A stretch of DNA of 64,000 nucleotides from a virus. Lineage: Duplodnaviria > Caudoviricetes. Made by a program: the position numbers and the translations under genes. The DNA lies in IMG/VR virus record IMGVR_UViG_3300042291_000844, positions 1 through 64,000 of that record. One strand, 5' to 3'. This document shows, piece by piece, positions 3,420 through 58,100 of this stretch (the stretch's first letter is position 1; the number at the start of each line of letters is the position of its first letter). The notes below the pieces were generated by a model, which saw only the letters and a program-made list of their open reading frames with translations, did not search any database and was not told the origin of the DNA.

Positions 3420-3432
3420 AATTTAATTTATT

Positions 3433-8674: not shown

Positions 8675-8941
8675 TTAGTAATCAAATCCTAAATATTTTC
8701 TAACTGATTGAGGTATTGCCTTTTTAACTGCTTCTTTATCGCCACCGAATCGTTTTTCAATAGTTTCACGAGCAGTTTCGATTGATTCGTCTGCATCTTT
8801 TATTGCTTTAGCTATATTTTTATCACTTTTTAAATTACGACTTAATATAGATAAAAATAAATTACTAATAAATCCTTCTTTCAATTTATGTTTAGTATAA
8901 ATTTCTTTAAAAAGTTGTCTATCTTCTTTTGTTAATTTCAT
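8675..8941 (-). CDS. Hypothetical protein
   Basis: 88-aa ORF with AGGAG RBS (TAGGAGAACCTTATG) and its own late-type motif at 8963-8970. Confidence 0.8.
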   Translation of the reverse strand: MKLTKEDRQLFKEIYTKHKLKEGFISNLFLSILSRNLKSDKNIAKAIKDADESIETARETIEKRFGGDKEAVKKAIPQSVRKYLGFDY

Positions 8942-8962
8942 AAGGTTCTCCTATTATACTCC

Positions 8963-8970
8963 TATAAATA
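8963..8970 (-). promoter_or_regulatory. Late-type motif
   Basis: Plus-strand TATAAATA, between a terminator and the TMP operon. Confidence 0.65.
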
Positions 8971-8978
8971 TAAGACAT

Positions 8979-9007
8979 AAAAAAAGTGAGGAATTTATTT
9001 CCTCACT
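8979..9007 (-). terminator. Rho-independent terminator
   Basis: Stem AGTGAGGAA/TTCCTCACT (8985-8993, 8999-9007) followed by a T7 run on the minus strand. Confidence 0.8.
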
Positions 9008-9234
9008 CTTACACCTGGTCCTTTTGATGGTTGGTTATTTTTTTGTGCTTTATTTGCATTATCACTTTCTCGTTTCTTTGTATCTACCAATTCTTTGTAA
9101 TAAAAATTTCTTAAATGAACTGGTAATCTATATACATCCGATTGAATGAACCCATTTCCATGATAACATAATTCAAAAATTTGTCTATGTAATAGGATAG
9201 AATAATTACTCGGTAGGCCAAAAAAAGCTAACAC
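8995..9234 (-). CDS. Tail assembly chaperone second segment (gp51-like); may be expressed by frameshift from the upstream gene
   Basis: GTG start with no RBS, 29-nt overlap with the upstream gene across a T7 run; product ...FFGLPSNYSILLHRQIFELCYHG... Confidence 0.7.
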   Translation of the reverse strand: MLAFFGLPSNYSILLHRQIFELCYHGNGFIQSDVYRLPVHLRNFYYKELVDTKKRESDNANKAQKNNQPSKGPGVRVRK

Positions 9235-9961
9235 CCATTGTAATAGGTCTTACCTCCATTTCTCCTGTTTCAGGGTTTTCGTAATCAAATTCCATTTTGA
9301 TATCCGGTTGTAAATTTTTTACATGTTCTCTAAATCCTTTGGTATCTCTAGCAAGGAATTTATTATTAATAAAATCAGTTATGGATTTGGTATCATCTTT
9401 ACCATCTACTGATTGAATCATATAACGATAACGAGTAGTTAATTCATTACCCATTGAATCTTTATTTAATCTCTTTAATGCATTAACATCAGTATCAATT
9501 CTTTTTTCATCACCATGAGTTAATAGTTTAAAAACTAATACATTACCAGTTGATGTTGTAAATTGATAACGATTTTCAGAACTTAATTTACTGAAATCAA
9601 CATCTTTTGTTTGAACTTTACCTAAATCAACAGTAATTTGTTGTTTGTTATCATTATCATCTAATATTTCAATCTTATATTCTGGTCCGTATCCTAAAAT
9701 ACGAGTTGCTAACATAATAGCATTCTTATCACCCAAAAGAATATCATCGGGATTTACTTTCTTATCTACTATAATTGCTTCGAATAATTTATCTAATACT
9801 ACACCTTTTTTAATCAAACTTTGAGATGAAAGAATTTCCTCCTCTCTTGCCGTCATGTATTTTAATTCGATGTTACCACTTGATAATGGATTTGTTTCTG
9901 GATAACACTTACCTTGAGATGGTAATGAAATTATCTCCGTTGAGAATTCGTATTGTGACAT
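9206..9961 (-). CDS. Tail assembly chaperone / baseplate hub assembly protein (gp26-like)
   Basis: ISLPSQGKCYP...IELKYMTAREEEIL motif, ends FFWPTE, lies between tube and TMP, AAAGGT RBS. Confidence 0.75.
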   Translation of the reverse strand: MSQYEFSTEIISLPSQGKCYPETNPLSSGNIELKYMTAREEEILSSQSLIKKGVVLDKLFEAIIVDKKVNPDDILLGDKNAIMLATRILGYGPEYKIEILDDNDNKQQITVDLGKVQTKDVDFSKLSSENRYQFTTSTGNVLVFKLLTHGDEKRIDTDVNALKRLNKDSMGNELTTRYRYMIQSVDGKDDTKSITDFINNKFLARDTKGFREHVKNLQPDIKMEFDYENPETGEMEVRPITMGVSFFWPTE

Positions 9962-9987
9962 ATTTTACCTTTATTTTGTTTATTGTA

Positions 9988-9995
9988 TATAAATA
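9988..9995 (-). promoter_or_regulatory. Late-type motif
   Basis: Plus-strand TATAAATA upstream of the chaperone gene. Confidence 0.65.
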
Positions 9996-10014
9996 TATAA
10001 ATAAAAAAAAATTG

Positions 10015-10043
10015 AAAAAAAAGGAGATATTTCTATCTCCTTT
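10015..10043 (-). terminator. Rho-independent terminator after the tail tube gene
   Basis: Minus strand AAGGAGATA-GAAA-TATCTCCTT followed by a T-run. Confidence 0.85.
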
Positions 10044-10066
10044 CTTAATTTTATATTTTAATTCTA

Positions 10067-10555
10067 TTAGAATTCAAGTATTGCATAATCGTAAGCTAAC
10101 GTTAATGTGATTTCTGCCGGGTCATTTGATGTCCAATCTAACTCACCAAATTGTGCGTTTAAGATAAATGCACCTTTGATTTTCCAGTTTTCGATTTTAT
10201 CACCTACTGGTCCTAACATATAGATATCAATATCTTTTTTGTAGAAATCTGCATATCCATCACGTCCTGTTAGGGATTCATGTGAAGTTCTAACCCACTC
10301 CATTACTGCTTGTGCACCTGATGGAACGATTGGGTCATACAATGTGATTTCTAAATCTTGCCACTCACCTTTACCTTTCAACTTTCTTTTTAAGTTGATG
10401 TGTTCTAATGTTACAGCTTCAAACTGAATGTTTGGTCTGTTAGCGGTTTTGATAAGATATGAAGGGATACCACCGATTTCCATGATGAAACGATTTTTCA
10501 TCTTTGGTTCAAAGTTGGTATAGAACATTTCGTTAAACTCTAATATTTCTGCCAT
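10067..10555 (-). CDS. gp19: Tail tube protein (T4 gp19-like)
   Basis: 162 aa; EPKMKNRF...WQDLEITLYDPIVPSGAQAVMEW...GAF...FGELDW...LTLAYDYA; directly after the sheath gene; TAGGAG RBS. Confidence 0.92.
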   Translation of the reverse strand: MAEILEFNEMFYTNFEPKMKNRFIMEIGGIPSYLIKTANRPNIQFEAVTLEHINLKRKLKGKGEWQDLEITLYDPIVPSGAQAVMEWVRTSHESLTGRDGYADFYKKDIDIYMLGPVGDKIENWKIKGAFILNAQFGELDWTSNDPAEITLTLAYDYAILEF

Positions 10556-41207: not shown

Positions 41208-42836
41208 TTAGATAGAAGCCAAATCTTTAACATAAATCTTACCATAGAATTCTGGACGGACCATCTTCTTAGCGTAACGAGTCATAACACCACGACGAGG
41301 CGTGAAGTTAGATGGGTCGTACACTAATGGAGTCATAATCAATGGTACATATGGAGCATAAACCGCACCAGTCTCAAGGAAGTTACTTCCTTTGAATCCT
41401 AATAAGATTTCGTTAGAAGTCATATAAGGGTTCTTGTAAACTGTGTAACGAGATGCCAAAGAACCTACTTGAGATACACCAGCTGCGAAAGATGTAGCAT
41501 CTTTATCAGCGTTAACTGTAAATCCAGGAATTGATTCTAAGATAGTACAAACATCTGGAGATGCAACGATGAAGTTAGCACCACCACGTAATGTTAATTG
41601 GTGAATCTTGTTAGAAACTTTGTTCAATTTAACACCTAATGTTTGGAACCATGTATTTTTTTGGTATGCCAATGAATTGTTACCTGCTGACCAAGTACCT
41701 GCTGCTGCATTGTACTCTTCACCGATTGAAGCAGACCAGTAATCAACTGTCAAAGCATTTGATTTTAACATATCTAAGATTTCTAAGTCAATCTCTAAAG
41801 AGATATATTCAGATAACATAGAAGTTAATTCAGCTTCAGCATCGATTGAGTGATATGCATTCAAATCTTGTGCCAATTCTGGAGTCCACACTGCTTTTAA
41901 CTTACGAGTCTTAGCAACGATTGCCTCAGAACGTAATTCTAAGTCAACTTCTGGAATACCTAAATCAGTTGCTGGTTCAGTTGGGTTACCATCTTCGAAA
42001 TCACCACGAGTGTTTGAAGTTGGAGCCTGTGCATATTTAACAGTGATTTGTGTGTGAGCACCAGCTGTGTATTTAGCATAGAATACGATATTATCACCAT
42101 CAACTTTAGTAAATTGAGGATAGAACGCATCAGCAGCAGAGAATGCTGAAGATGAGAAGTAGAATGAACGTACACCATCTAAATCTGGTCTTGATAATTC
42201 TGATTTAGGGAATACAACTTTTCTTAATCCGCCTGTTGCAGTACCTAAAGCTACTGATGCAGATAAAGATGAATCGAATCCAACTTCTGCCCATGTTGCA
42301 GAACCAGTACTGATTACATCAGCAGATGCTACTAATGAACTAGATTCGTTAACTGTATAACCATAACGACCTTCACCATAAAGACCGTTTACTGCAGATT
42401 TAGTTCTACCGAAATCACCATCAAATGTTGAAGTACCTGCACCACCGAATAAAGATTTTCCAGAAAATGCTGGATTACCTGGAACTGCAGTACCATATTT
42501 GAAGTCTAGATAGAATATAAGACCTGAAGGTAAGTTCATTGGTTGAACTGAAACGAATTCTTTCGCTGCAATTTCACCAAAGATTCTTCTTACTAATGGT
42601 AAAGCGACGCCAGACCATTCTTCAGAACCTGCTGAAGTACCAGTTGCGGTAGCTTCATCCAATAATTGTTTCGCTTGGTTCTCTAATAGAACTGCGATTT
42701 GAGATTGCTCTCTTTCTTTTAAACCTTCTAAAAGACCAGTTGCTTCCCATTTGCTTTTCAATTGACGTGTTTCAGCCAACATTACCGCTTGTGGGTTCTT
42801 GCCTTCCATAAGTTTAGATAAATTAAAATTTGCCAT
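41208..42836 (-). CDS. gp23: Major capsid protein (T4 gp23-like)
   Basis: PLVRR, VSVQPMNLPSGLIFY, AKTRKLKAVWTPELAQDLNAYH.IDAEAEL, YAPYVPL, P..G.MTRY motifs; AAAGGAG RBS. Confidence 0.97.
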   Translation of the reverse strand: MANFNLSKLMEGKNPQAVMLAETRQLKSKWEATGLLEGLKEREQSQIAVLLENQAKQLLDEATATGTSAGSEEWSGVALPLVRRIFGEIAAKEFVSVQPMNLPSGLIFYLDFKYGTAVPGNPAFSGKSLFGGAGTSTFDGDFGRTKSAVNGLYGEGRYGYTVNESSSLVASADVISTGSATWAEVGFDSSLSASVALGTATGGLRKVVFPKSELSRPDLDGVRSFYFSSSAFSAADAFYPQFTKVDGDNIVFYAKYTAGAHTQITVKYAQAPTSNTRGDFEDGNPTEPATDLGIPEVDLELRSEAIVAKTRKLKAVWTPELAQDLNAYHSIDAEAELTSMLSEYISLEIDLEILDMLKSNALTVDYWSASIGEEYNAAAGTWSAGNNSLAYQKNTWFQTLGVKLNKVSNKIHQLTLRGGANFIVASPDVCTILESIPGFTVNADKDATSFAAGVSQVGSLASRYTVYKNPYMTSNEILLGFKGSNFLETGAVYAPYVPLIMTPLVYDPSNFTPRRGVMTRYAKKMVRPEFYGKIYVKDLASI

Positions 42837-42871: not shown

Positions 42872-43987
42872 TTATTTAATATTTGCTAATTTCTTGAAAC
42901 GTTCTGCCATAGAATTGCTTTCTGCTATAATTGTTTTTGGAGCAGTTGAAGCAACTTTTTTCGATGCGAATGATTCATTCATTTTAGTTTGTTGTTTTAC
43001 CTTCTTAGCAGTTCCACCAATTTTCATTGATTCAGCTAATGTAGAGAAAACTAATTTTACTTCTCTAACGTTTTGAGTTCTATCTAAAGTTTCAACAACT
43101 TTATGTTTTTGCTCATTAGTTAAATCGTAAGAACGGAATAATTTGTTAGTATACAATAATTTTGCATTTAACAAGTTTACTTCGTTGATTGTAGATTTCA
43201 AAGATTTGATAACTTTGTATGCTTCTTCTAAATCAGCTTGTAATTCAGCTTTTTCTTCATCAGCACCTTCTTTCATTTCCTCTTCTTCACCTTCCATTTT
43301 TTCGTCATCACCATAACCCATTTCACGTAAGATTTCGTCTAAGTCGATTTCTTCGTCTTCTTCGGATACTGGTTCTGCTTTTTCGTCACCTTCTGCAAAA
43401 GCTTCTGGTTTTTCTTCCTCTTCAACATACTCAGGTTTTTCAGTTTCGAATTTTACTTCGCCTTTTTCATCACCTTCTTCTGTCATTGGGTCGTTTTTAC
43501 CATCTAACTCTTGTTCTAGTTCTCTGATAATTTCTTCTAAATCGAAATCATCTTCATCCATAGGTTCAGGTTTTTCTTCTTCAGAAATTGCTCCAGTTGG
43601 GTCGTCGTTAACACCATCACCATTTTCATCTTCATCAGATTCTGCGATTGTGTTGTTTTCGTCTTCTTTACCTGGTGTTGCTGTTTCTTTGTCAGTATCA
43701 CCTAATTCTGTGTGTGCATCAGTTGAGATACCCTGTGGGTCTTTGTTCTCAACATCGCCAAATTTTGTGCTGTCTGCATCCGATGTGTCATCTGCACCAT
43801 ACTCTTCAGTTACATCTGCTGTCTCATCTTCTTCACCTTCCATTTCGGCTGTGATTTTCTTAGATAAGATAGATTGTAAACGTGGAGTAAAAGCTTCCTC
43901 TAATGCGATTTTAGCATTAGCGATTGCAGTTTCACGTACGGCTTTAGCATCAGCAATTGCATCTTTCAACAATTTTGAATTTGCCAT
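42872..43987 (-). CDS. Prohead core scaffold protein (gp22-like)
   Basis: Highly acidic with a coiled-coil C-terminus; immediately upstream of the capsid gene; AAAGGA RBS. Confidence 0.85.
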   Translation of the reverse strand: MANSKLLKDAIADAKAVRETAIANAKIALEEAFTPRLQSILSKKITAEMEGEEDETADVTEEYGADDTSDADSTKFGDVENKDPQGISTDAHTELGDTDKETATPGKEDENNTIAESDEDENGDGVNDDPTGAISEEEKPEPMDEDDFDLEEIIRELEQELDGKNDPMTEEGDEKGEVKFETEKPEYVEEEEKPEAFAEGDEKAEPVSEEDEEIDLDEILREMGYGDDEKMEGEEEEMKEGADEEKAELQADLEEAYKVIKSLKSTINEVNLLNAKLLYTNKLFRSYDLTNEQKHKVVETLDRTQNVREVKLVFSTLAESMKIGGTAKKVKQQTKMNESFASKKVASTAPKTIIAESNSMAERFKKLANIK

Positions 43988-44185: not shown

Positions 44186-44488
44186 TTAATCTCTTGAGGT
44201 GTCTTTATCTGATTGAGGTGTTTTTTTACTAACTTTCTTTTTCTTTTTAGTAAAAAACCTAATCGTTCTATCACCATCTGCAATCTTACCGAGAGCAACT
44301 CTTTTTTGCTCTTCTCTGATTGCCTTTTGTTTTTGTAATCGTCTTTTTGTAGTAGGTTTAACGTATTCCTTTCTTTCTCTTAGTTCTAAGAGGTGTCCAG
44401 ATTCCATAACCTTTTTTTTGAATTTCTTTAAAGCCTTTGCAATGTCTCCATTACGAACTTCGACTGTAACTCTTGATAATCCGCTCAT
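44186..44488 (-). CDS. rpsU: Phage-encoded 30S ribosomal protein bS21 with C-terminal extension
   Basis: V.VRNGDIAKALKKFKKKV...G.L.ELRERKEYVKPT.KRR.QKQKA bS21 signature. Confidence 0.93.
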   Translation of the reverse strand: MSGLSRVTVEVRNGDIAKALKKFKKKVMESGHLLELRERKEYVKPTTKRRLQKQKAIREEQKRVALGKIADGDRTIRFFTKKKKKVSKKTPQSDKDTSRD

Positions 44489-44545: not shown

Positions 44546-45619
44546 TTATTTGCTTAAAAGGAACAATGCTTCTTCAGCTTCTTGTTGATTTTTAATCTTT
44601 GGGTCTTTATACATATCTACTTTATATCCTCTTAACGCATTTGATAAGAATATCATATACTTAGGATGTCCTAATTTTTCTTCTAACGTAGAAAGTGAAT
44701 CATAGAACGATTGCTCGTTTCCTTTATTCATTTTTTCTGCTGCTTTGAATTCTTCTTTATGTTTATCAATATATGATGCAGTTGAATCTTTATATCCGTA
44801 TTGTGCTTCGTTTACTTTACCACAATCAACACAATTAGTTTTAGATTCTTCTAATGGCCATTGTTTCAACCACTTTAACCACTCTTTAGTATTCCAATCG
44901 TTTCTTTGTCTTGCATCTACTTTATAGTATTTTGCAAATACATCTTTTAATTCTGATTTGTAATTAGCAAAACCGGGTATTTTAGATGTAACGTTTACAA
45001 ATTCATTTGCACTAGCGTAATGTTCCATTGAGTTAGATAACATATCTACTAATGCTAACATTGCTTTATCATTACCTAACGCTTCGTTTACTGATTCATT
45101 CTTTGGAACACAATTAGGAACTTGAGCACCACCTTTACCTGGTTTCATTCCTATCATCTCATATCCTTTCCAACATGGGTCTTTCTCCCCACCTTGTAAT
45201 TTACCATCTTCTCTCAATCCCAAACGTTCTCTCATTTGTTCTTCAGAAATTTCACCAATTTTATAGTAACGAGATAGGATATGTCCCATATCTTCGTATA
45301 ATCCATGTAATCTTTGGTCTAAGTTCTTTGCTTCTATTGCAACTTGGTCGAATGATTTACCTAATTTAGTTAATTCATTCATATTACGTTTAACAGTATG
45401 TGCATCAAACCAATCATCTGCTTCGTTTACCGCCAATTCTCTAGCTGCATCGGTAATACCACCTAAAGTTTCTGCAACTTCAGTAATATCTGATTTTCTA
45501 TCCATCATTTCTTGATACTTGTTGTATGTAGAAACGATTTCTAAGAAATGTTTTTTTACTTCGTTAGAAAATCTTTTTGGTTCTTCACCTTCTTTAACTA
45601 TCTTTGATAAACGTATCAT
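44546..45619 (-). CDS. Putative internal head protein, modular
   Basis: N-term MIRLSKIVKE; internal ESVNE; TAGGAG RBS; lies in the head cluster. Confidence 0.6.
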   Translation of the reverse strand: MIRLSKIVKEGEEPKRFSNEVKKHFLEIVSTYNKYQEMMDRKSDITEVAETLGGITDAARELAVNEADDWFDAHTVKRNMNELTKLGKSFDQVAIEAKNLDQRLHGLYEDMGHILSRYYKIGEISEEQMRERLGLREDGKLQGGEKDPCWKGYEMIGMKPGKGGAQVPNCVPKNESVNEALGNDKAMLALVDMLSNSMEHYASANEFVNVTSKIPGFANYKSELKDVFAKYYKVDARQRNDWNTKEWLKWLKQWPLEESKTNCVDCGKVNEAQYGYKDSTASYIDKHKEEFKAAEKMNKGNEQSFYDSLSTLEEKLGHPKYMIFLSNALRGYKVDMYKDPKIKNQQEAEEALFLLSK

Positions 45620-45629
45620 TTATTATCTC

Positions 45630-46988
45630 CTATTTTACTAATTTTGCTAATTTTATTGATTCTGATTTAAATGGATTAAATAATCCTCTATTATTTACTT
45701 CCTTTTCAGTAGATGGTGCAACTTTTGCATTTTGTTGGTGTTTGTTCTTTATTGGATTATATTTTTCCAATTCATCAACATTAACATTACCATCTGCATC
45801 GGTTTTAACCTCGCCCGATTTATCATCACCCATTCTTACAATACCAACTGTCTTTGTTCTTGTATTATATACTAAATCATCTTTTTTGAATTTACCTTCA
45901 TTTGTAGTATCTTTTGTTTTAAGTACGTCTGCAAATGTATTTTCAATTTCATCCATCATATTGAATTCATTTAATTCATCCCAATCAAATGATGTTTTTA
46001 ATTTAGTCCAATTTATTTTTTCGTTTTTAGGTGCACCCGATACAATTGTCCAAATCAAGTCATTACATACTTTTATTTTAGCATCTTTATCTTGTGAATA
46101 TTTAGGATTATCTAATGCTTTTATAGTAGTATCATATACTGCTTTAACATTGTTGTATGCTAACTCTTTTCTAGTATAATGTATATCAGCTAATTTTTTA
46201 GCTGCAGCTTCTCTTTTTTTCTTAAAGTATGGAATTATATCTAATATGTCTTCATTTACCATTTTTGATAACGAAAGTCTACCTTCATTCTTCATATATG
46301 GTTTATTATCAAATACTGATTGAATTAAATCCGCTTCTTTATGAAATCCATTCATCCTTAATGTAAATGCTATACCATCTGCTGCATCAACTCCATCCCA
46401 TCCTGATGCTTGTGATACATCCGTACCATAATCATCAATCTCACCAGTTCCGTTCATATAAACCGAACCATCTGCCGAATTCTTACGAATATCAGCCATT
46501 TTCTCTTTATACTTAGGGTCTTTGATTGACGGATATTCAGGTTTCTTTGCAAATTCAGGTTTTCCCTCAATCGCTGCTACTAATTCTCTTGCCTCACTAT
46601 GGAAGTTTGAATCAGTTAGTGCAGAAACTGCTGCTTGAAACATTGCTTCTTTATATTTTTCATTACCCAACTTTTGTGGAGTAATTCCTGATTTCTCAGC
46701 TAATTTCTTAGCATCTTTATTTACCGATGGATTACCTGGTCTTTTCTTTTTAGGTTCTGATGTTGGTTCATCCTTCTTAGGTTCTGCTGCAGGAGTATTA
46801 AATATATTTGCGGTTGGTGTAGATGCCTTTTTAGAAACATCGCCCCCTTTACCATCTGCTTTTGAGTGAGTTCCTGCTTTGATTGCAGAATCTCTACTAT
46901 CCTTTGATTTGAACACCGATGTTTTACCGGTCTTCTTATTAGTAGCAGTAAACGTTTCTTCGTTAAGTAAATTATTTAATTTAATCAT
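45630..46988 (-). CDS. Putative internal head protein, modular
   Basis: N-term MIKLNNLLNE; internal xxNE junctions; AGGA RBS. Confidence 0.6.
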   Translation of the reverse strand: MIKLNNLLNEETFTATNKKTGKTSVFKSKDSRDSAIKAGTHSKADGKGGDVSKKASTPTANIFNTPAAEPKKDEPTSEPKKKRPGNPSVNKDAKKLAEKSGITPQKLGNEKYKEAMFQAAVSALTDSNFHSEARELVAAIEGKPEFAKKPEYPSIKDPKYKEKMADIRKNSADGSVYMNGTGEIDDYGTDVSQASGWDGVDAADGIAFTLRMNGFHKEADLIQSVFDNKPYMKNEGRLSLSKMVNEDILDIIPYFKKKREAAAKKLADIHYTRKELAYNNVKAVYDTTIKALDNPKYSQDKDAKIKVCNDLIWTIVSGAPKNEKINWTKLKTSFDWDELNEFNMMDEIENTFADVLKTKDTTNEGKFKKDDLVYNTRTKTVGIVRMGDDKSGEVKTDADGNVNVDELEKYNPIKNKHQQNAKVAPSTEKEVNNRGLFNPFKSESIKLAKLVK

Positions 46989-47007
46989 TAGTTGATGTTC
47001 CTATATT

Positions 47008-47448
47008 TTAAAATCCTATTGAGACCGTTTTATTATCAAATTCTATCCAACGTATTTTTAATGCAATTAAATCTTTTAAATCTGATGGGTCTAATCTCCA
47101 ATTTTTTTCTGCCATTTCAATATCAGCGATATTACCATGAATACCATCCCAAATTGTAATAACTTTACCATTAAAGAATTTTAAGAATTGTTGTACTTGT
47201 TTTTGTTTGTTAGAATCTAATTCTTTTAATTCAATTTCTGATGCCTCTTTAATTACCCTTTTAGTTTCAGTTAATACAGTTTTATGTGTATAAAGGTCTA
47301 ACTTACCATCGGCTTTAATCTTAACCTCATAGTTAGTCTTACGAATATCGTTATGACCACCCTTAAAAGGTGTATCACCAACTTCTTTCTTAATACTACC
47401 CATTTCTATTTTGTTATCTCTTAGATAATCTTGTATTGAAAATGCCAT
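47008..47448 (-). CDS. Hypothetical head-region protein
   Basis: 146 aa, AAAGGA RBS, between the protease and internal-protein genes. Confidence 0.7.
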   Translation of the reverse strand: MAFSIQDYLRDNKIEMGSIKKEVGDTPFKGGHNDIRKTNYEVKIKADGKLDLYTHKTVLTETKRVIKEASEIELKELDSNKQKQVQQFLKFFNGKVITIWDGIHGNIADIEMAEKNWRLDPSDLKDLIALKIRWIEFDNKTVSIGF

Positions 47449-47458
47449 ATTGTATCCT

Positions 47459-48058
47459 TTATGCTAATTCAGTAATGATTTCTCTCATAAGGTCTTGTGC
47501 CTTACAATACTCACCACAAACTATAGCTTGTTCTTTTAATTGTCTATTTACTGATTCATTCATCGTAACCGGTGTCATAAATGCACCATGTGTAGATGGG
47601 TTAGAAACAAAATCCCAACCAATCAGTTCAAAATCATCACCCACTTTTACTTTACCTTCGCCAATGTTAACTACCGAACCCATACCACGAGAGGAAATAC
47701 CCAAAAGGATACCTGCTCTTAATAATTCTTTTAAGATGTTACCTGATGGGGTTGGTAGAATTTCTACTGTGCCACAAAGGTCATCACCTTCCCAATGAAT
47801 TTCTTTTACGTTATGTGAAACATTCTTTAAGTTGATAATACCAGAATCTGGATGGTCTAACTCTCCTAATGCACGTCTTTCTTTAATAAGAACTTCGTAT
47901 TTCTTTGCTTCACGCATTAAGATTTCTTTAGGGTATATACGACCATTTTGGTTTTCTGCAACCGCTCTTTGAAGAATACCTTTAACTAAGGTTCTACCAT
48001 TTGAATCTTCATTCAATTTTCCTTCAAATAATGTTGTTTCTATTAATAAATTTTTCAT
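47459..48058 (-). CDS. gp21: Prohead core protease (T4 gp21-like); start corrected to MKNLLIE at 48058
   Basis: NQNGRIYP, ALGELDHP, NVSH, TPSG, LGISSRGMGS, WDFVSNPSTHGA motifs. Confidence 0.95.
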   Translation of the reverse strand: MKNLLIETTLFEGKLNEDSNGRTLVKGILQRAVAENQNGRIYPKEILMREAKKYEVLIKERRALGELDHPDSGIINLKNVSHNVKEIHWEGDDLCGTVEILPTPSGNILKELLRAGILLGISSRGMGSVVNIGEGKVKVGDDFELIGWDFVSNPSTHGAFMTPVTMNESVNRQLKEQAIVCGEYCKAQDLMREIITELA

Positions 48059-48234
48059 TATGCTCCCCACGTTTTTCTCTTTTTAAAGAGGTCAAAAAAT
48101 ATTGCAGATACTTCTCTACGAATAATATCACGAATAAGTTTTTCATCCTCAGTTGTGATTTCTTCTTTGACGATACCCCATTTTACTTTGGTTATCTCTT
48201 CGTTAATAATATCTAACAATCTTTTTCGTGTCAT
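48058..48234 (-). CDS. Small head-region protein missing from the ORF track (58 aa)
   Basis: Manual translation MTRKRLLDIINEEITKVKWGIVKEEITTEDEKLIRDIIRREVSAIFFDLFKKRKTWGA*; fills the gap exactly and overlaps the protease start as TAATG. Confidence 0.8.
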   Translation of the reverse strand: MTRKRLLDIINEEITKVKWGIVKEEITTEDEKLIRDIIRREVSAIFFDLFKKRKTWGA

Positions 48235-48236
48235 TG

Positions 48237-48719
48237 TTATTTTTTCTTTACTAATTCGTTTACACCTTCTACTAAATGTAGAACAAAATCACCATTACCA
48301 TTTGATTTTACTACTTTATATTCTTTTTTCTTACCACCGGAATTGATAGTTATTTTTTCACCAACTTTAAATGCGTTTTTATCACCAGTTTTTAATACAG
48401 CAGGTCCATCGTAATCTTCGTTTACTGATTCGTTTGCTTTTTTACCAGCTCTTAAATCTGCTAAATCATCACTACCGATATCACCATCTTTATCAACATC
48501 TAATTTCTTTTGGCCACCAACTAATTCTTCATTCTTCTCGCCCTTACCATTCCATGCTGCATCAATTTTATCAAAGAATGCTTTCTTTTCTTCATCTGAC
48601 ATAGATGGAATTGATTTTCCAGCTTTATCTAATGCTTTTTGAAAGAATGCCTGATATTCATTTTCTTCAGTCATTACTCCTTTGATGATTTCTTTTAATC
48701 GTGTACGTGATATTTTCAT
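48237..48719 (-). CDS. Putative internal head protein
   Basis: MKISRTRLKEIIKGVMTE N-terminus; ESVNE junction; LDVDKDGDIGSDDL EF-hand-like loop. Confidence 0.6.
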   Translation of the reverse strand: MKISRTRLKEIIKGVMTEENEYQAFFQKALDKAGKSIPSMSDEEKKAFFDKIDAAWNGKGEKNEELVGGQKKLDVDKDGDIGSDDLADLRAGKKANESVNEDYDGPAVLKTGDKNAFKVGEKITINSGGKKKEYKVVKSNGNGDFVLHLVEGVNELVKKK

Positions 48720-50095
48720 TATTTTTCTATCTCCTGTATTGTTTTCGCTATGTTGATTAATCGTTCCTTTATCTTATAAATATGTCCATGCGTTCTTTTC
48801 CAAAATGTATCGGAACTCAATTCATTCATAGTCTTAATTTGATTATACCAACGGAAAAAAGTTTCAACTTCTTTTAATTGATATTTTAATTCTCTCAAAC
48901 CAGTTGCTAACTTCTTATTAGCATGCATTGATTCATCGTTTTTTAATTCTAACCAACGATTTACCGGTCTTTGAATTTTCTTTCCCTCTGATAAACTCTC
49001 ATCCATATGTTCTAAACCATATTTCATAATAGTTTTATCATCTAACATCTTACCATTAAGAGTAAACATACGTTTACCTTTATAATAAACTGACCAATTA
49101 CCTTGTGGGGTTGCATCGACAGTAATATTTTTTAAATCCTTTATACTTCTATCATTAACTTGAATAGCATCTAAGAATTTTTCTGCTTTAGGGTCTAATG
49201 CTTCGTTTACCGATTCATTTGTTGATACAAATAATCTTACTGAAAGAATTACATCTTTATCTATATTTAAACTTCTTACTTTATTTTTTTCTAAATCGTA
49301 AGCCGGATTGATTGTATTTGCTTTTGCAATTACACCATCTTTAACAAAGTGTGGTTGTAATCCAGAATAGTTATCATCTCTAAACATAAAAACATCTTTA
49401 GGAGAATCCTTAGATATTTTAATTATTTTCTTTAAACCTTCCTTACCGATAAAACATCCACCTTCACATTTACTTCCACCATAAGTTTTACCTTTTTGTA
49501 ATGATGCTTCGTTTACCGATTCACCTAATCTATCAAGCATTCCACTTACAACTTTATTAGTTATTTTATGGTTATTATCATTAAAAGCTTTTAAAATTGC
49601 GTGATATACATTTGTACCACCTTTAACATTTTTTTTCTCTATTTTTAGTTTTTTACCATTTTTTAATGTTACTAAAATATAGTGTGGGTTTACAAATTCA
49701 TCCCAATCTTTGTAGATGGGTGCATCTTCGTTTACTGATTCGTATTTAATCATATCGGGGTCAAACTTGTCAAAATTCTTCTTTGCCCATTTAACGGCAT
49801 CTTCATAAGAATTAAATTTAATCCTATCTTGTTTGAATCCCTTTTTCTTATTTAGAAAATCAATATAAACTTTGTCTTCATTTATGGATTCATCAATATT
49901 ATTAATATCATTATTTACTAATGTATAACCGAATTGTGTTGCAGTTTTTTTTCTTTTTTTATCAGAATTTTTACCAGAAAAGGCATGAGGAGTATCGTAA
50001 CCATCAACATTACCTGTCACATTGGCTTCATCTAATTCATCTTCGACTTCCTTAATAAGTTCGTCTATAAAAGATTTAATATTTTTTTCTGACAT
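48719..50095 (-). CDS. Modular putative head protein with five ES(V/I/L)(N/S)E-delimited cassettes
   Basis: ESINE, ESVNE x3 and ESLSE separate unrelated 45-110 aa modules. Confidence 0.65.
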   Translation of the reverse strand: MSEKNIKSFIDELIKEVEDELDEANVTGNVDGYDTPHAFSGKNSDKKRKKTATQFGYTLVNNDINNIDESINEDKVYIDFLNKKKGFKQDRIKFNSYEDAVKWAKKNFDKFDPDMIKYESVNEDAPIYKDWDEFVNPHYILVTLKNGKKLKIEKKNVKGGTNVYHAILKAFNDNNHKITNKVVSGMLDRLGESVNEASLQKGKTYGGSKCEGGCFIGKEGLKKIIKISKDSPKDVFMFRDDNYSGLQPHFVKDGVIAKANTINPAYDLEKNKVRSLNIDKDVILSVRLFVSTNESVNEALDPKAEKFLDAIQVNDRSIKDLKNITVDATPQGNWSVYYKGKRMFTLNGKMLDDKTIMKYGLEHMDESLSEGKKIQRPVNRWLELKNDESMHANKKLATGLRELKYQLKEVETFFRWYNQIKTMNELSSDTFWKRTHGHIYKIKERLINIAKTIQEIEK

Positions 50096-50945
50096 TGGTT
50101 ATTTCCTTTATTAATTCGTATGATATCATCAACGCTGAAACCTGTTCATCCGTAATTTTCTTTCCTATCTTTTGTGTTTTCAAAACATTGATAGTTTCTT
50201 TTAATTTAATTTTTGTGATTTTATCATTAACTTCGGAATGTAATTTGTGAAGTTCAGTTACTACTTTCTTTAATTGTGAATCGTAGTATTCACCGAATTT
50301 AGATGTATTATTAACATTATTAATAAATTCTCTTAAAAGACCTTTTTGGTCGTCGTTTAAGTTAGTGTATTTGGTATTAAATGTTTCAACTAGTATTTTA
50401 TATGTCAACAATCTCAAATCTTTTTCTTGATTCTTATATGTTTCCATTAATTTATCTTCAATCTTCTTAATAGATACTGTGGTTGTAGATACGTGTTCTA
50501 CTAATGTAATCTTAGCATCAAATACATCCTTAACATTAGTTACATCTTGTATCTTTGCTTCAAAAATCTTATGAACCGATGCTAATACTCTATAATTAGA
50601 AACAGGAGAAGCAACAAATTCTTCAATATCGAAATTTTCTTTAATAGCTTTTACTAAGTTATACTTTTCTCTTAATAATTTAGTTTCATCTAATTTAGTA
50701 CGAGTTTCGATAATAGCATCAATAAATTTTTCTGCTTTACTTTCTGAATTATATTTTTCAGTTGTAAGTAAATTGAATAAACGCAATTCCTTTGCTAATT
50801 CGGTTTTACCACCAAAAAATTCTTGTACTATTTTTTTAGCCTTCTCAACTGGAGCATTATTTAAAATCTCCAATGTGATTTGACGAGTTAAGAGTTCAAA
50901 TAAAAACCCTGTATTTTTAAATTTCGAATGTTTAATTTTTTTCAT
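50076..50945 (-). CDS. Conserved hypothetical helical protein downstream of the portal
   Basis: 289 aa; KHSKFKNTG.LFELL motif; AAGGA RBS. Confidence 0.75.
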   Translation of the reverse strand: MKKIKHSKFKNTGFLFELLTRQITLEILNNAPVEKAKKIVQEFFGGKTELAKELRLFNLLTTEKYNSESKAEKFIDAIIETRTKLDETKLLREKYNLVKAIKENFDIEEFVASPVSNYRVLASVHKIFEAKIQDVTNVKDVFDAKITLVEHVSTTTVSIKKIEDKLMETYKNQEKDLRLLTYKILVETFNTKYTNLNDDQKGLLREFINNVNNTSKFGEYYDSQLKKVVTELHKLHSEVNDKITKIKLKETINVLKTQKIGKKITDEQVSALMISYELIKEITNVRKKY

Positions 50946-51013
50946 TGTATTTTAAATCCTTATTTTGATAGACTCAAATTTCTATATATAAATATAAAAA
51001 ATTCTAAGTTAGA

Positions 51014-52744
51014 TTAATTTTCCGTATCATCGATAATATTAGTTTCATCTAACATATCTTTAGTTTCGTGTAAATATTTCTTTTTTGATGAAATCCCATT
51101 GATGTAATTCATTGCTTTTGTTTCAGATGTTCTACTTCTCTTTGAAGTTCTCTCATCATCACCTAATGGGTCTCTTCCATAAGGATGTTTGTCTTTACCA
51201 TAAGTATTACCTTCGCGGGGTCTACCACCTTTATCCTTCAATTCTGTTTTAAGATTTTCTAAACTTTCTTCAACATCATTTTGTTTTGGAGGGTTTGCAG
51301 GGTCATTACCATCGTTTTCTATTGAGTTATAACGGAATGTATCTTTTAAATCCTCAACCACTTTACCTCTTTGTTCAGTTTGTTCTGTTTCTGATAATTT
51401 AAATATATTTTCATATATCCAATCTTTAGATAACATCTTTAAACTTTGCATATCAGTTGCTAAACGGATTTTCTCACTCCATAAGTTTACTTTCTCTTGT
51501 TCGTAGATTGTAGATGGGTTAACTAATCCAATTTCAAAATTAGTCATTTCAGAATCTTGAATACCATTACCATATAAGTGGATAACTGCTATTTTAGATA
51601 ATTCTGAAGTAATTGTTCGTTGGATTCTTTCGATTGTTCTTGCAAAACGTACATCTTCTGCTGCTAGGGTTGCTTTACCATTTACATTTTCATCATATCC
51701 CAAATATGCTTTAGGAATTTTTAATGCAGCAAATAATTTAGCTTTTAAGTAATCAATATCTTCAATTGAAGCGTATTCTAATCCTGCTAAGTTTTCAATA
51801 GCAGTTCCACTATCACCACCTCTTACCGGTAGATAAAAATCTTCCGTAAGGTTTTGCATATTATACTTTAAATTGTAATCACCACTTGTCTTATCTAAGA
51901 ATGGAACTTTTTTCATCTTATTGATAATCTTTTGCATGTAGTTATCAACTTCCGTTGGTGGAATATTACCAATATCAATTTTGAACACTCTTTTTTCAGG
52001 TGCTCTCATAATACGATGGATTAACATCGCATCTTCCATTAGGGATAATTGTTTCCATAACCTTCTACCATTCTCAATCATTGATTTACCATAAGGTAAC
52101 CAGTTGGTATCTGATAATAAACGGAAATGTGCCATTTCAAAGTTATCATACTCTACTTTACCGATTGGGTCTTCTTGTACTTTGAATTTAACAAGTGAAG
52201 TATTCTCAGGGTCATGTCCTTCTATTCTTTCAGTATTGTATTGTGAGTGTGGAGTAACGTTTACTATACCTTTACCTTCAGCAATCTCAAGTCCTAAAAA
52301 GAAATCACCATATTTACACATATTACGTGTCCACGGCCATAAGTTAAATTCAACATTAAGAATATCATAGAAAAGATTTTCTAATAATTCTTGTACTCTT
52401 TGATTATCTGAACGTATTGTTAGAATATCACCAAATTCATTTTTAAGTGTAGATTCATCAGCGTAAATATCTAATGCAGATGCTATAATTGGGTCTTGGT
52501 CCATTGCATCAAAATCTCTAAATACTTCTCTACGAACTTGAGCGTATGCCATTGATTGTGCACCACCTGCTTGTTCATAAAAAGATTTTTGTATTTTTGT
52601 GTACCTATCTTTTAATGAAGATAGGTTTGTTTGTTGTTTTTCATCCGCATCAAAAACTTTTCGTTTTCCACTAGCATCGACAGTAACAATTGCCTTTGTA
52701 GAGAAAAGTTTTTTTAACCGATTGAAAAATGTAGTATCTGCCAT
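51014..52744 (-). CDS. gp20: Portal protein (T4 gp20-like)
   Basis: W.R...KYGD, EDAMLIHRIMRAPEKRVFKIDIGN, EDFYLP.RGG..GT.I..L.G, L..ALKIP motifs. Confidence 0.96.
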   Translation of the reverse strand: MADTTFFNRLKKLFSTKAIVTVDASGKRKVFDADEKQQTNLSSLKDRYTKIQKSFYEQAGGAQSMAYAQVRREVFRDFDAMDQDPIIASALDIYADESTLKNEFGDILTIRSDNQRVQELLENLFYDILNVEFNLWPWTRNMCKYGDFFLGLEIAEGKGIVNVTPHSQYNTERIEGHDPENTSLVKFKVQEDPIGKVEYDNFEMAHFRLLSDTNWLPYGKSMIENGRRLWKQLSLMEDAMLIHRIMRAPEKRVFKIDIGNIPPTEVDNYMQKIINKMKKVPFLDKTSGDYNLKYNMQNLTEDFYLPVRGGDSGTAIENLAGLEYASIEDIDYLKAKLFAALKIPKAYLGYDENVNGKATLAAEDVRFARTIERIQRTITSELSKIAVIHLYGNGIQDSEMTNFEIGLVNPSTIYEQEKVNLWSEKIRLATDMQSLKMLSKDWIYENIFKLSETEQTEQRGKVVEDLKDTFRYNSIENDGNDPANPPKQNDVEESLENLKTELKDKGGRPREGNTYGKDKHPYGRDPLGDDERTSKRSRTSETKAMNYINGISSKKKYLHETKDMLDETNIIDDTEN

Positions 52745-52817: not shown

Positions 52818-54401
52818 TTATTTAATCAACCAAGTCAAATCTTCGTCTTGATTACCCACTCTCATTGACCACGGATTATCATCCATTGAACTACCACCAT
52901 AGAAACCAGATTCTTGTATTTGTTGTTGAATTCCACCCAATGATTTAATAGTTAAATCGATTCCTTCCTGTCTTAATCTCAATGCGGTATCTCTAACCCA
53001 TAGAGCAATCGATAACGCCATCACTAAGTCATCATTGTATCCCCTCATTGCTTCTGCACGATTGTTGTTCCATATAAAGGTAAAAAGCTCCTCTATCAAC
53101 CTATTAGAACGTATGGTGATAGATTTCTCTCTGAAGTAATCATCTAACTTTGAAATAATCAAAGGTCGTGTCTTAGATGTAGTTGAAAAACCTGCAACCA
53201 TACCTCTTTCTTCTGCCCTAAACTTATTATGCATCTGATGTTCAACATCCACATACTTTAAATCCTTACTCATATAGAATAAGTTTTTATATCCCCTATC
53301 GATTACCTGTTGGATAACTGCCCAACCAATATTTGCGTTCTCTATTACTAAAAGTGCTTCGTTATAATCAGTTGCTAAGGAAACTAAGAAATTTCCAAAA
53401 TCTTTTGTATCTAATTTTCCTTTGTATTCTGCTACTTGTACCGAATTAACAATATCAATCACTTGTGCGGCGGAGTAATCCGTAGAATCTCCACGGGCAA
53501 CGTCCGCAACAACCATATATGATTTTTGATAATCGGGATATTCCCATTTCCAAAGATTCCCATCAAAGCCAGTTTTTTCTAATGGTTCTTGTACAAAAGA
53601 TTCTTTATAAAACATTAGAAGTTGTGGGTCTATGACACTATCACCGGATGATACGAAATCACAATCGCATTCCTGTGCTGCACCCTTTGCTCCTAAAAGT
53701 ATTTGTTGTTCATCTCTCCATTCTTGATTTCTTTCGGGGTGAACCGTCCAATGTAAACGGACTGTATTGAATCCATTAGTTCCATCCTCTGCACCAACCC
53801 AAGTCCTATGAAAGAAATTACCCACACCATTAGGAGTAGAAAGAATAATTGCATTACCACCCGTTGATAGAGTAGATTGTGCAGATATCCAAATTTCTTC
53901 AATGTTATCAATGAATGCTGCCTCATCAAATACTAATAGGGATAGTGCTTCAGAACGACCAGCATCACCTGCTGCAGAAGTTGCTTTTGCCTGTGAACCA
54001 TTTGAGTATCGTAATGAAAGTTTATTATCTTCAACTGTTGTTTGTTTTAACCAACTAGGTAAATATTGATTCATTACCCTAATTTTAGTAATAAGGTTTT
54101 TAGCAACTTCTTGTTTAGTTGCAATTACCAATACGTTAAAATCTTGATTAAATAACATCTTCCACAATGCAAATCCCGCAGTTAAGGTAGATATACCAGT
54201 TTGACGAGATTTTAGAATGATGTTATATCGATGGTCTTTGAATTGTGTTAGTGTATTTTCTTGAAATGGATATAAATGAAATGGTATTTTACCGCGGACA
54301 GGGTGTTGAATCATACAATACTTTTTCATAAAGTATATAGGGTCACCAGCACATCGTTGGTATTCTAATTTTATTATATCTTTTAAAGAAGTTCCTGCCA
54401 T
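52818..54401 (-). CDS. gp17: Terminase large subunit (T4 gp17-like)
   Basis: KSRQTGIST Walker A, LLVFDEAAF Walker B, ILSTPNG coupling motif, VVADVARG nuclease motif, DDLVMAL. Confidence 0.97.
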   Translation of the reverse strand: MAGTSLKDIIKLEYQRCAGDPIYFMKKYCMIQHPVRGKIPFHLYPFQENTLTQFKDHRYNIILKSRQTGISTLTAGFALWKMLFNQDFNVLVIATKQEVAKNLITKIRVMNQYLPSWLKQTTVEDNKLSLRYSNGSQAKATSAAGDAGRSEALSLLVFDEAAFIDNIEEIWISAQSTLSTGGNAIILSTPNGVGNFFHRTWVGAEDGTNGFNTVRLHWTVHPERNQEWRDEQQILLGAKGAAQECDCDFVSSGDSVIDPQLLMFYKESFVQEPLEKTGFDGNLWKWEYPDYQKSYMVVADVARGDSTDYSAAQVIDIVNSVQVAEYKGKLDTKDFGNFLVSLATDYNEALLVIENANIGWAVIQQVIDRGYKNLFYMSKDLKYVDVEHQMHNKFRAEERGMVAGFSTTSKTRPLIISKLDDYFREKSITIRSNRLIEELFTFIWNNNRAEAMRGYNDDLVMALSIALWVRDTALRLRQEGIDLTIKSLGGIQQQIQESGFYGGSSMDDNPWSMRVGNQDEDLTWLIK

Positions 54402-55126: not shown

Positions 55127-58100
55127 TTATGCGTAAAAAATACCTAATAATTGATTGAGAGAAGCGAACGCTCCTGTTAATTTGAATGTCTGTCCGTTAT
55201 ATACAAATACAATTCCTTCGATTGGTACGATTCTTTTAGCACCACCAATTGCATTTAATCTTTTAAGTTCTAATTTTAGTTTATCTATCTTTTTAGGGTC
55301 TCCACTTGCCTGAACATCCTTTATAGTTTGTTCTAAACGTTTCTTCATATCCCTTAGAGCGGAATCTGGATTAACTGTTAATACCGATGCGGTAAATTCT
55401 AATACATCTGCACCAACTCCTAAGAAAATATCTTCAAATTTCATTAAGTTATCTTTTGAAATACCCTTATGGTCTTCTTTATCTATCTTAGTAGCCCATG
55501 CAAGAGTTTTTTCATCCTTAATTGAATTCTTATCAATACGGAATCCCTTTTCGTTAAACGCCCATCTCTTAACTAACCCCATTTTAGTGGCGTTATCTAA
55601 TGTAGTTGGTGTTTTCTTATCTACAAAGTTCTCCCACCATGCTTGATGGTAATCGGCAACACCTGCAGTATCTCCTAATCCAAATTCTTTTTGCAATTTA
55701 GATATCATAGTAAGATACTTACCTTTCTTAGATGATAGGTCTTGTGATTTTGGTAACTTTAATACCGGTGGCCCTTGTAGTGTATACTTTGATTGAACAT
55801 CTGCGTTTACTTGTTTAAGCATTCCACCCAATACTCTACCTGCTTCTGCTGATTCCCCTATTGCATCACCATTCTCATCGTACTCCATTGTTCCGTGAAA
55901 TACTAATAGTGGTTGTCCGTAAGGAATGACGTTGACTGAGGTAGGATATATCACCTCTATGTTCATAAAACACGAACCATTCTTAAATACCTTATCTTTT
56001 TGTGATTGGGATAATGATTTTATAGCATTAGATAGGTCTTTCATCGCAAAATTGTAGGCATCAGTTAATTCACCTCTACCCGCAAACTTATCTGCTACTC
56101 CGTTGATATCTAACGCCCCTGCACCTTTGTTTTTCAAATGTGATTTGTTTCTTGCTGCTACTAATCTACCATCTATCCAACTAATTGCTAATGCTTGACC
56201 ATCGGTTTTCTCTCTAGCAAATTCTAAATTACCATCTAATGCACGATTTACGATATCTTTAAGTTGACCAAAGGTTAAATTGATTTCAGTATCAAATGGA
56301 TGATTCATATGTCCATATGCACCACCTTCCATTAGTAGGGATTCATTTATTGATTCCGTATTTAAAGATAATAAATCCCAATCTAATTCTTTACTATCAA
56401 AATCAATGCCATTACTATAAACATCTTTTACTATTACACCTACTTGTTTCATTTGGTTTGCTAAATCCTTAACAACATTTGGTTTCATATTAATAAGACT
56501 TACCGAACCTGCACCATTATATTCATACCCACTTCCCTCATATTTACGGAAACCTCTTACACTAGTACTATATGATTCTACTTTTTTTATACGATTCTTT
56601 TTAAAAATAGCATTTATTTCTTTTTTTACAATATTTCTTTCAGCTTCATTTATAGATTCGGTTGTAAATACAGGAGTAGATGATTTAAAATCAGCTTTTC
56701 TCATTATCGTCTTAGCAATCAATCTATCAGCCACTTTAATAAATGCTATATTGATATTTGATACTCTATCTTTAACTACAAACTCTTTATATTGTTTTAG
56801 AAACTCTAAAAATTTCTTTTTGTTTCTAGCCAATCTTTTAAATAATCCTGTTAATTCTGCAGGAGATATTTCTTTACCATTTCGTGGGTCGTTTAACCTT
56901 TGAAAGAAATGGTCAGTTTCCCTTCCTAAATCAACATCAGTTGGACTCATTTGTGAATCAGCATATTTTTCAACCGAATCCATATCAGTCTTAGCCATTT
57001 CAACTTTAACTTTTTCTCTTAATATTGCACTTTGAGATGAATAAAAGTATCTATCAATTAATTTATTTTCTACTTTTTTAAATCCTGCACTTTTATGACA
57101 ATTATGGAATGGGTTTTGTTGTTTCACCAAAAGTATTTGATGTGTTATCTCATGTAATATTGCCCTTTCTATATCAGTAACCTTACTCAAATCAAAGGTA
57201 ATGTATTCTGGTATAAATGTGTTAGAATCGTATGTAGTTGCAGCACCTGCACGACCAACTGAACCGAATTTAACTGCGATAGGTTTTATATTTAAATCTT
57301 TACAAATTGCTTTGTAGTAATTTACAACACTTTCTTTTTTAACTTCGGTGATAATACTCTCTTCAACTTTTTTTAATTTAGTATAATAGTTTTCATCCTC
57401 CCAAATATGGTCTTTTGCTATTTCAGTTGCAAACCGAATATCTGATGTGTGTTCCATTTCTACTTTAGCACCATCTTTGATTTTTTGTTTTATTACATCA
57501 ATTGTGGTGTTATATTTTGTAGCAAAATCATCTAATGTTTTATCAGTTGATAATCCACCGGGTATAACATCCGTTTGAACTGCTATTTCTTCCAAATCAT
57601 CTTCAAAATCTGGTTGACCCGAATCTTTTACTTTAAAATTAGCTTTTTTATTATCGTATTTTCTCGGATGTGTTCTTGCCCAATCTGCGTAATTATTAAC
57701 TGTTCCATCATAGTAATAATTTTCTTTAATATCACCCTTTTCATCTTTGTTAGAATTAAATGATTCTATTGCAGAAGCCATTACTTCATTTGGTATTTTT
57801 GCATTTTCTAATTTTTTACTTATGATAGCTATAAATTTTAACATATCCGCATCTGGTTCTTCCTCTCCTGCAAATAAGGCTGCTTTACCTGCCCCTACTG
57901 CAAGAGTTTCAACAACTACATGTGGAATAAATTCCATCATTACGTGTTTACCAAAAGCAACAGCTCCATGTGCCAATCCACCTCCCGCTGCACCAAATGC
58001 TGCTGCTAATGCAACTTTTTTTGCAACATTAATTAGGGCTTTCTTTTCTTCTTTTGATACCTCTTTACCACTAAAAAAGTTTTTAACGCCACTACCGGCT

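Follow-up and report, generated by a model that had tools for sequence, protein, structure and literature searches.

The stretch analysed here (the window) is 64,000 nucleotides (nt) of the IMG/VR virus record IMGVR_UViG_3300042291_000844 and is the head module of a far-T4-type lake phage, in which an S77/gp21-type prohead protease, a gp23-type capsid protein and a gp20-type portal are all encoded. All positions are those of the whole window and all the relevant genes lie on the (-) strand. The element in question is the pentapeptide ES(V/I)NE, termed the joint, together with the genes that carry it, in which it borders small exchangeable protein segments (cassettes). Along the (-) strand the large terminase and portal genes are followed by genes for proteins of 289, 458 and 160 amino acids (aa), a 58-aa open reading frame (ORF), the protease gene, a 146-aa gene, the 452-aa and 357-aa genes, and those for the ribosomal protein bS21, an acidic scaffold and the capsid protein. 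The nearest named relatives with this common gene order are Flavobacterium phage immuto, Microcystis phage Mel-JY01 and the 484-kb uncultured phage LR756508, to which the capsid protein shows 52%, 52% and 54% identity, respectively. The stretch is present in 23 lake-water runs from 23 separate studies, and a 238-kb contig carries the window's own 458-aa protein.

The joint and the genes that carry it

Eight copies of ES(V/I)NE were found in the window, all in frame, in four (-) strand genes (Table 1). Only 0.04 copies were expected, and none of 2000 residue shuffles of the 55 window genes (20,447 aa) reached eight. For the looser pattern [VI]NE, 22 copies were seen against 10.3 expected, and these are concentrated in the head genes and the gene for an 1847-aa protein. 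The original prediction had named these eight pentapeptides and a ninth, ESLSE, as separators of unrelated modules of 45-110 aa, and all nine do lie, in frame and on the (-) strand, where it had placed them. ESLSE does separate modules by position; it is not a cassette joint, however, but a constant site before the C-terminal module with a different DNA sequence (GAGAGTTTATCAGAG). The modules of the 458-aa protein measure 73, 50, 73, 102, 72 and 88 aa, and pieces elsewhere are larger (179 + 178, 101 + 59 and 1342 + 101 + 404 aa).

At the DNA level, the five ESVNE copies are encoded by GAATC(A/G)GTAAACGAA and the three ESINE copies by GAATCNATAAATGAA. In 1.05 Mb made up of the window and related loci, all 141 copies of the 15-mer GAATCN(G/A)TAAAYGAA were in frame within ORFs of at least 150 codons, and none was intergenic or out of frame. 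The joint motif is therefore a coding feature. A free-standing DNA site of the homing or regulatory kind was rejected, as the 15-mer never occurs outside a long ORF or its frame in these sequences. To our knowledge the joint is also unlike the sequences of 2A-like ribosome skipping or intein-like self-cleavage, and no report of ESVNE in a phage context was found in the literature.

Constraint at the joint is seen in both the peptide and the DNA. All of the 122 distinct joints have Glu at P1, while the P3 residue is Val (94 joints) or Ile (28 joints); substitutions are conservative (V/I/L at P3, N/S/T at P2), and the variant joints EGVNE, ASVNE, SLVNE, TTLNE and ILNE retain the core (V/I/L)-N-E. 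The serine codon drifts while the peptide is kept (TCA 65, TCG 30, TCT 14, TCC 12), and the joint persists where the 102-aa cassette has diverged to 35-45% identity, being retained in 58 of 106 representative clusters. The joint DNA is more uniform than the peptide demands: the GTA codon is used in 62 of 65 joint classes (background 51-66%) and AAC in 47 of 70 (background 24-30%). The base 3' of the motif is G in 83%, with no conservation beyond it.

Table 1. Features of the window. An arrow marks a putative cleavage position.
Feature	Position	Strand	Remarks
Joint 1, ESINE	49877-49891	-	Closes N module of 458-aa protein
Joint 2, ESVNE	49727-49741	-	458-aa gene
Joint 3, ESVNE	49508-49522	-	458-aa gene
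Joint 4, ESVNE	49202-49216	-	458-aa gene; predicted disordered tail of 102-aa cassette
ESLSE	48986-49000	-	Constant (L/I)-S-E↓G site before C module; VISE↓G in cassette-free relatives
ESVNE joint of 160-aa gene	48417-48431	-	
ESVNE joint of 357-aa gene	45083-45097	-	
ESINE joints of 1847-aa gene	56645-56659 and 56342-56356	-	
458-aa putative cassette polyprotein	48719-50095	-	N module 73, cassettes 50, 73, 102, 72, C module 88 aa
Helical leader of 458-type gene	50027-50095	-	23 residues, ends LDE↓A; conserved in 87 relatives
160-aa gene	48237-48719	-	Leader MKISRTRLKE; acidic N module 101 aa; exchangeable C cassette 59 aa
58-aa ORF	48058-48234	-	Leader MTRKRLLDIINE
S77/gp21-type prohead serine protease	47459-48058	-	Starts MKNLLIE from ATG at 48058
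146-aa gene	between protease and 452-aa gene	-	
452-aa gene	45630-46988	-	Leader MIKLNNLLNE (46959-46988); one MVNE↓D site (46251-46265)
357-aa gene	44546-45619	-	Leader MIRLSKIVKE (45590-45619); acidic N module, then two cassettes
KVNE of 357-aa gene	44807-44818	-	Second breakpoint site
1847-aa multidomain protein	55127-60670	-	N-terminal cytidylyltransferase-like domain; DUF5661
101-aa cassette slot of 1847-aa protein	56357-56644	-	Between the two ESINE joints
Large terminase	52818-54401	-	
gp20-type portal	51014-52744	-	Pfam 4e-68
289-aa gene	between portal and 458-aa gene	-	Conserved
Phage bS21 ribosomal protein	44186-44488		Among head genes, as in Mel-JY01; Pfam 3.5e-15
Acidic scaffold protein	42872-43987	-	
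Scaffold site I-N-E269↓V	43181-43189	-	LQE↓V in immuto, LNE↓V in Mel-JY01
gp23-type capsid protein	41208-42836	-	Pfam 2e-76
Capsid site L-D-E61↓A	42654-42662	-	Likely propeptide cleavage site; VSE↓A in immuto, ISE↓A in Mel-JY01

Module exchange at the joint

Homologues of the 458-aa protein number 847 and range from 255 to 628 aa in length; many are 97-100% identical to it over 20-60% of the query only. When the proteins were cut after ES[VILM][NSDT]E and the pieces clustered, the 458-type proteins resolved into a constant acidic N module of ~73 aa, a constant basic C module of ~87 aa and internal cassettes of 43-170 aa that vary in number, order and kind. A total of 88 module families were distinguished, with 185 distinct adjacencies and 119 architectures (174 proteins) and up to eight modules in one reading frame; the 102-aa cassette alone has neighbours from 11 families upstream and 15 downstream. 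At the other extreme, the 458-type protein of Mel-JY01 is free of cassettes, with AVNE alone between the N and C modules, and cassette-free variants occur in the lake clade too (P0105). Genomes that are 95-99% identical elsewhere differ in cassette number and order.

Modules are exchanged at the joint. The gain or loss of modules exactly at ESVNE among orthologs was the test by which the original prediction could have been refuted, and it was passed strongly: when positions 47400-51100 of the window were aligned (blastn) with 79 related loci, 99 of the 106 internal ends of alignments with at least 90% identity fell within 10 nt of a joint, compared with the 11.6% of positions expected. Counting distinct ends only, 33 of 39 did so (p = 2e-25). 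In three loci 98% identical to the window (L008-L010), the 73-aa cassette is gone exactly between joints 2 and 3, with both flanking alignments overlapping by 16 nt; an additional cassette stands at joint 4, and the C cassette of the 160-aa gene is located in another gene 3.5 kb off. Contigs from single lake runs join 49506 to 49726 (219 nt) and 49730 to 49881 (150 nt), each an exact deletion of one cassette, and two reordered joins were also observed among them; these contigs, matched at 90% likeness, prove only that the joined forms exist as DNA.

The same cassettes move between four or five genes with different N-terminal leaders. The 102-aa cassette was found in three gene types, namely the 458-type and those with MIKLK... 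and MIRLSK... leaders. A 98-aa cassette is shared by a 458-type gene (L037) and the giant 1847-aa protein (L053), in which it fills the slot flanked by the ESINE joints; this slot holds four different cassettes in four loci. The two cassettes of the 357-aa gene are bounded by its ESVNE and by KVNE, the latter also serving as a breakpoint site.

Several further observations touch on the 102-aa cassette and the giant protein. In three lake runs (X1-X3), the summed contig depth of the 102-aa cassette region (49136-49507) exceeds that of the constant genes on either side 3-5 times, which is consistent with its presence in several genes or genomes per sample. One 322-aa protein from a 1.3-kb metagenome contig (P0053) has an N-terminal portion of a GIY-YIG nuclease domain (Pfam 2e-5) inserted in frame in the middle of this cassette; this could be a homing-endonuclease insertion in the cassette locus or a chimeric contig. 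The 639-aa 'cytidylyltransferase-like' protein of Mel-JY01 (L002, 212-2128) corresponds to the N-terminal domain and the C-terminal 404-aa domain (E = 2e-91) of the 1847-aa protein, and the window version has therefore gained ~1100 aa together with the mid-protein cassette slot. Such a gain in the middle of the protein follows the same pattern as in the 458-aa gene. The C-terminal 402 aa of the 1847-aa protein gave no sequence match in PDB.

Protease, leaders and cassette proteins

The protease matched Peptidase_S77 (PF03420, 8.2e-27), phrog_207 (8e-49) and the T4 gp21 structure 5JBL (1.2e-18). It has His and Ser in the columns where crystallised T4 gp21 has Ala, and these are presumably the catalytic residues. 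In the alignment with T4 gp21, the TMNE↓S of the protease falls opposite ITE↓S, close to the C-terminus of gp21. Cleavage by gp21 occurs after L/I-X-E (PMC9026906), while its giant-phage relatives cleave after A-X-E (PMC9026906, PMC10052503). The joints conform to this gp21/S77 rule in having Glu at P1 and an aliphatic residue at P3, with Val at P3 an extension of the T4 rule, and the gp21 homologue is itself encoded between joint-bearing genes. Where T4 cuts its capsid and scaffold proteins, those of three phages have conserved sites of the same type (Table 1).

The T4 targeting sequence has 10 residues; positions 4 and 7 are important for targeting, whereas processing depends on positions 8 and 10 (PMC9026906). 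The N-termini picked out by the original prediction as leaders of this kind all exist, namely MIRLSKIVKE (357-aa), MIKLNNLLNE (452-aa), MTRKRLLDIINE (58-aa ORF), MKNLLIE (protease) and MANFNLSKLME (capsid), and it had overlooked MKISRTRLKE of the 160-aa gene, also 10 residues ending in Glu. MIKLNNLLNE and MIRLSKIVKE fit the T4 pattern (hydrophobic at 4, 7 and 8, Glu at 10; compare T4 MKTYQEFIAE), while MKISRTRLKE matches it at positions 8 and 10 only. The idea of portable T4-like leaders was supported, in that MI(K/S)LK(D/N)(I/L)(I/L)(N/K)E precedes at least six unrelated sequences; it does not extend to the 458-type gene, in which a conserved 23-residue helix ending in LDE↓A takes this place. 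The protease and capsid N-termini, listed by the prediction as similar, are not conserved in the cultured relatives. The protease start recalls the LIE-9 noted for gp21 (PMC9026906) and is not conserved in immuto or Mel-JY01. The 102-aa cassette starts at the identical residue after a MIKLK-type leader and after ESVNE, which ties the leader end to the joint.

Leaders of another type were observed in LR756508 (L082; LR756508.1, 151904-193517), where at least 16 small ORFs of 80-180 aa in the head region share one helical leader, MK(I/L)(S/T)ExKLRx(I/L)(I/V)(K/R)E, listed also with a further E (e.g. 501-932, 1221-1502, 2854-3117, 3167-3586, 8804-10166 and 35297-39202 of L082). They seem to make up a large family of head proteins that are each encoded separately and carry the leader, a one-gene-per-cargo solution, and the 160-aa gene and 58-aa ORF of the window share their start type with these small ORFs. 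In immuto, only two copies of the 15-mer were found in the 160-kb genome, GAATCAGTAAATGAA and GAATCATTAAACGAA, both in the gene for gp079 (L001, 1105-3627, 841 aa). The joints they encode, NESVNE↓G and KESLNE↓D, flank a 45-aa piece, and gp079 starts MKKLIRIVE↓AGEK and has several LNE sites.

The cassettes gave dN/dS (ratio of nonsynonymous to synonymous substitution rates) values of 0.0-0.27 and are under purifying selection. Cassettes and C modules are basic (median isoelectric point, pI, ~9-9.9), in contrast to the acidic N modules (pI 4.5-5.5). An AlphaFold2 model of the 102-aa cassette, built on an alignment of 51 diverse homologues, is a compact alpha/beta domain with a mean predicted local distance difference test score (pLDDT) of 84.6 and a predicted template modelling (TM) score of 0.75, in which only residues 98-102, the ESVNE tail, fall below a pLDDT of 50. 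The cassettes are predicted to fold as separate domains, with the joint in a disordered tail. Many residues of the 102-aa cassette are invariant across contexts. Its distant homologues are stand-alone proteins of 75-117 aa and parts of giant proteins, in one of which it adjoins an ArdA antirestriction domain.

Attempts to assign the cassettes to known families were negative. None matched Pfam or PHROGs, apart from two PHROGs of unknown function on the 357-aa protein, and a feature search of the ESM Atlas gave no usable match. For the 102-aa cassette, Foldseek searches of its model against PDB and the AlphaFold clusters returned nothing significant (best E 0.085, TM <0.45), and tblastn against cultured phages found no match. 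The two PHROGs (phrog_36547 and phrog_9737, E ~1e-8) match the region of the 357-aa protein around residues 144-174 (45098-45190), where a Cys-bearing motif, DPCWKGYEMIGMKPGKGGAQVPNCVP, stands just before the ESVNE joint. In the 160-aa protein, the stretch just before its joint, DVDKDGDIGSDD (residues ~74-96, 48432-48500), resembles by eye an EF-hand calcium loop, and a similar stretch, GKEDSDINNDGKVDKTD, was seen by eye in immuto gp079.

Proposed processing and its place among known systems

The explanation that best accounts for these data, and which is rather probable in our view, is that the genes around the prohead protease encode head-core polyproteins that are cut at the joints by the S77 protease, the joint being at the same time a recombination site. 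Each polyprotein would consist of a short leader, an acidic pro-module and then a string of small, independently folding, mostly basic cassettes ending in ES(V/I)NE. The S77/gp21-type protease would cut after the last Glu of the joint inside the prohead, and cutting by this enzyme is in itself rather probable and the best reading of the sites. The freed cassettes would remain with the DNA as separate small proteins, as the internal proteins of T4 do; with 50-170 aa they would not be the small peptides that had been predicted. The same 15 nt would thus encode a cleavage site and act as an in-frame recombination joint, and a crossover between any two joints would add, delete, reorder or move a cassette, within or between head genes, while leaving frame and processing intact. 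From the T4 precedent only, we infer cleavage, packaging and injection, and the role of the cassettes is likewise presumed.

Some findings weigh against this explanation. P3 and P1 are all that T4-type proteases require, so that the protease alone does not account for a Glu-Ser that never varies at P5-P4. The breakpoints of the 452-aa protein do not fall at its (V/I/L)NE sites. The model of the whole 458-aa protein is poor (pLDDT 50.6, too poor for a fold search), with all five joints in low-confidence coil. No cassette has a known fold or family, and any role after injection is therefore a guess. No virion proteome was found in the literature for immuto or Mel-JY01.

It is also conceivable, although unlikely, that the joint acts as a flexible linker and recombination site and nothing else, and that the proteins stay whole as multidomain head or ejection proteins, beads on a string in the manner of polyvalent proteins, with ESVNE uncut. 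Conservation of the joint DNA beyond the needs of the peptide would suit this alternative, as would the Glu-Ser invariance in a site of which gp21-type enzymes need only P3 and P1 (PMC9026906). The 102-aa cassette has distant homologues in giant proteins that lack ESVNE and look uncut, among them the one beside ArdA; these point the same way, and some virion polyvalent proteins are packaged unprocessed (PMC5512222). A mere linker, however, would hardly be expected to end in the P3-aliphatic, P1-Glu pattern of a protease encoded between the genes, to keep its peptide with conservative changes while the third position of the serine codon is free, or to persist where the cassette itself is at 35-45% identity. 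The common start residue of the cassette after a 10-residue leader and after ESVNE also argues for a cleavage site.

That the cassettes are neutral or selfish in-frame passengers, tolerated since they lie at joints where the host protein would be cut in any case, and spread by recombination with no service to the phage, is improbable. Their variable number and order among otherwise near-identical genomes, the existence of cassette-free variants, the lack of any known function found for them and the GIY-YIG fragment fused into one of them are in keeping with such a status. However, the low dN/dS values and the many invariant residues and confident fold of the 102-aa cassette speak against it, and the shared basic charge suggests a common property under selection. 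Cutting of the sites by another enzyme, either a host protease or a SprT-like HExxH region of the 1847-aa protein, is very improbable: zincin domains have been proposed to process polyvalent proteins (PMC5512222), but the SprT match (E = 0.027) is far short of the Pfam threshold, the site has the signature of a gp21-type protease, and immuto gp079 has joints and no HExxH motif in its printed sequence. An origin of the mosaic in metagenome assembly across repeated cassettes is barely credible, for although short-read contigs break at joints and cassettes are multi-copy in the samples, the 15-nt repeat is shorter than assembly k-mers, so that reads must span each of the 185 adjacencies, the same architectures recur in independent samples on contigs of 69-287 kb, and joints are present in the complete genome sequence of immuto, a cultured phage.

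The closest systems to head-core polyproteins of the kind proposed are the T4 internal proteins, polyvalent proteins and the modular shuffling mediated by promoter and stem-loop elements (PeSLs), none of which combines a head-protease site with an in-frame joint; no description of such a combination was found in the literature. The T4 internal proteins (IPI, IPII, IPIII and Alt) share the protease family, a leader of ~10 residues ending in aliphatic-x-Glu, the occurrence of one conserved leader on diverse small basic cargos and a locus that is variable among relatives (PMC9026906, PMC3012670). In T4, each cargo has its own gene and leader, whereas several cargos share a frame with internal sites here, and exchange takes place at these sites as well as among several head genes. 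For T4, packaging and injection have been proven; here they are predicted.

In phiKZ, 201phi2-1 and SPN3US, many head proteins are cleaved by a gp21-like protease, which acts after Glu in A-X-E and other short motifs; head, inner-body and ejection proteins there have long propeptides with several cuts each (PMC10052503, PMC9026906). Those cuts remove propeptides from single mature proteins, and no interchangeable cassette array or conserved nucleotide joint has been described. Polyvalent proteins, whose domains are encoded near head genes, proposed to be packaged and delivered, and much shuffled (Iyer et al. 2017; PMC5512222), resemble the present ones in the many unrelated domains per polypeptide (within their range of 2-15), the head-gene context and the ArdA domain beside a distant 102-aa homologue. 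They differ in that processing by built-in zincin peptidases was proposed for them, no joint peptide or head-protease border sites were described, and most of their domains can be recognised as enzymes, while no family match was obtained for the present cassettes. Polyvalent proteins have domains of known conflict function, often along with a zincin peptidase; the 1847-aa protein has its cytidylyltransferase-like domain, DUF5661 and the sub-threshold SprT-like match. PeSLs are short conserved sequences that flank cassettes in T4-type phages and mark points of insertion, deletion or replacement, with homologous recombination on small patches as the proposed mechanism (Arbiol et al. 2010; PMC2839356). 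The likeness is that, when near-identical genomes are compared, the borders of indels fall on a short repeat that is conserved; PeSLs, however, are intergenic, consist of a promoter and stem-loop of ~100 bp and move whole genes, unlike the in-frame joint of 15-16 nt, which moves protein domains.

More tentatively, the 15-nt site and joint may constitute a protein-level cassette array that supplies a phage population with a combinatorial library of small head-packaged, injected and probably counter-defence proteins. These would be shuffled within and between several head genes with frame and processing assured after each exchange, and a dedicated nuclease may stimulate the exchange.

A phage first answers host defences with its injected head proteins, the diversification of which is known mainly from the internal-protein genes of T4. 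The locus described here suggests another route, in which cargos are chained and the cutting sites are also the recombination joints, so that any exchange would give a working product. The cassettes offer dozens of unexplored small protein folds, which may target host systems. Immuto gp079 with its two joints is a possible laboratory model in a cultured phage, and the leader and joint, like the T4 targeting sequence, could find use in loading capsids with foreign proteins.

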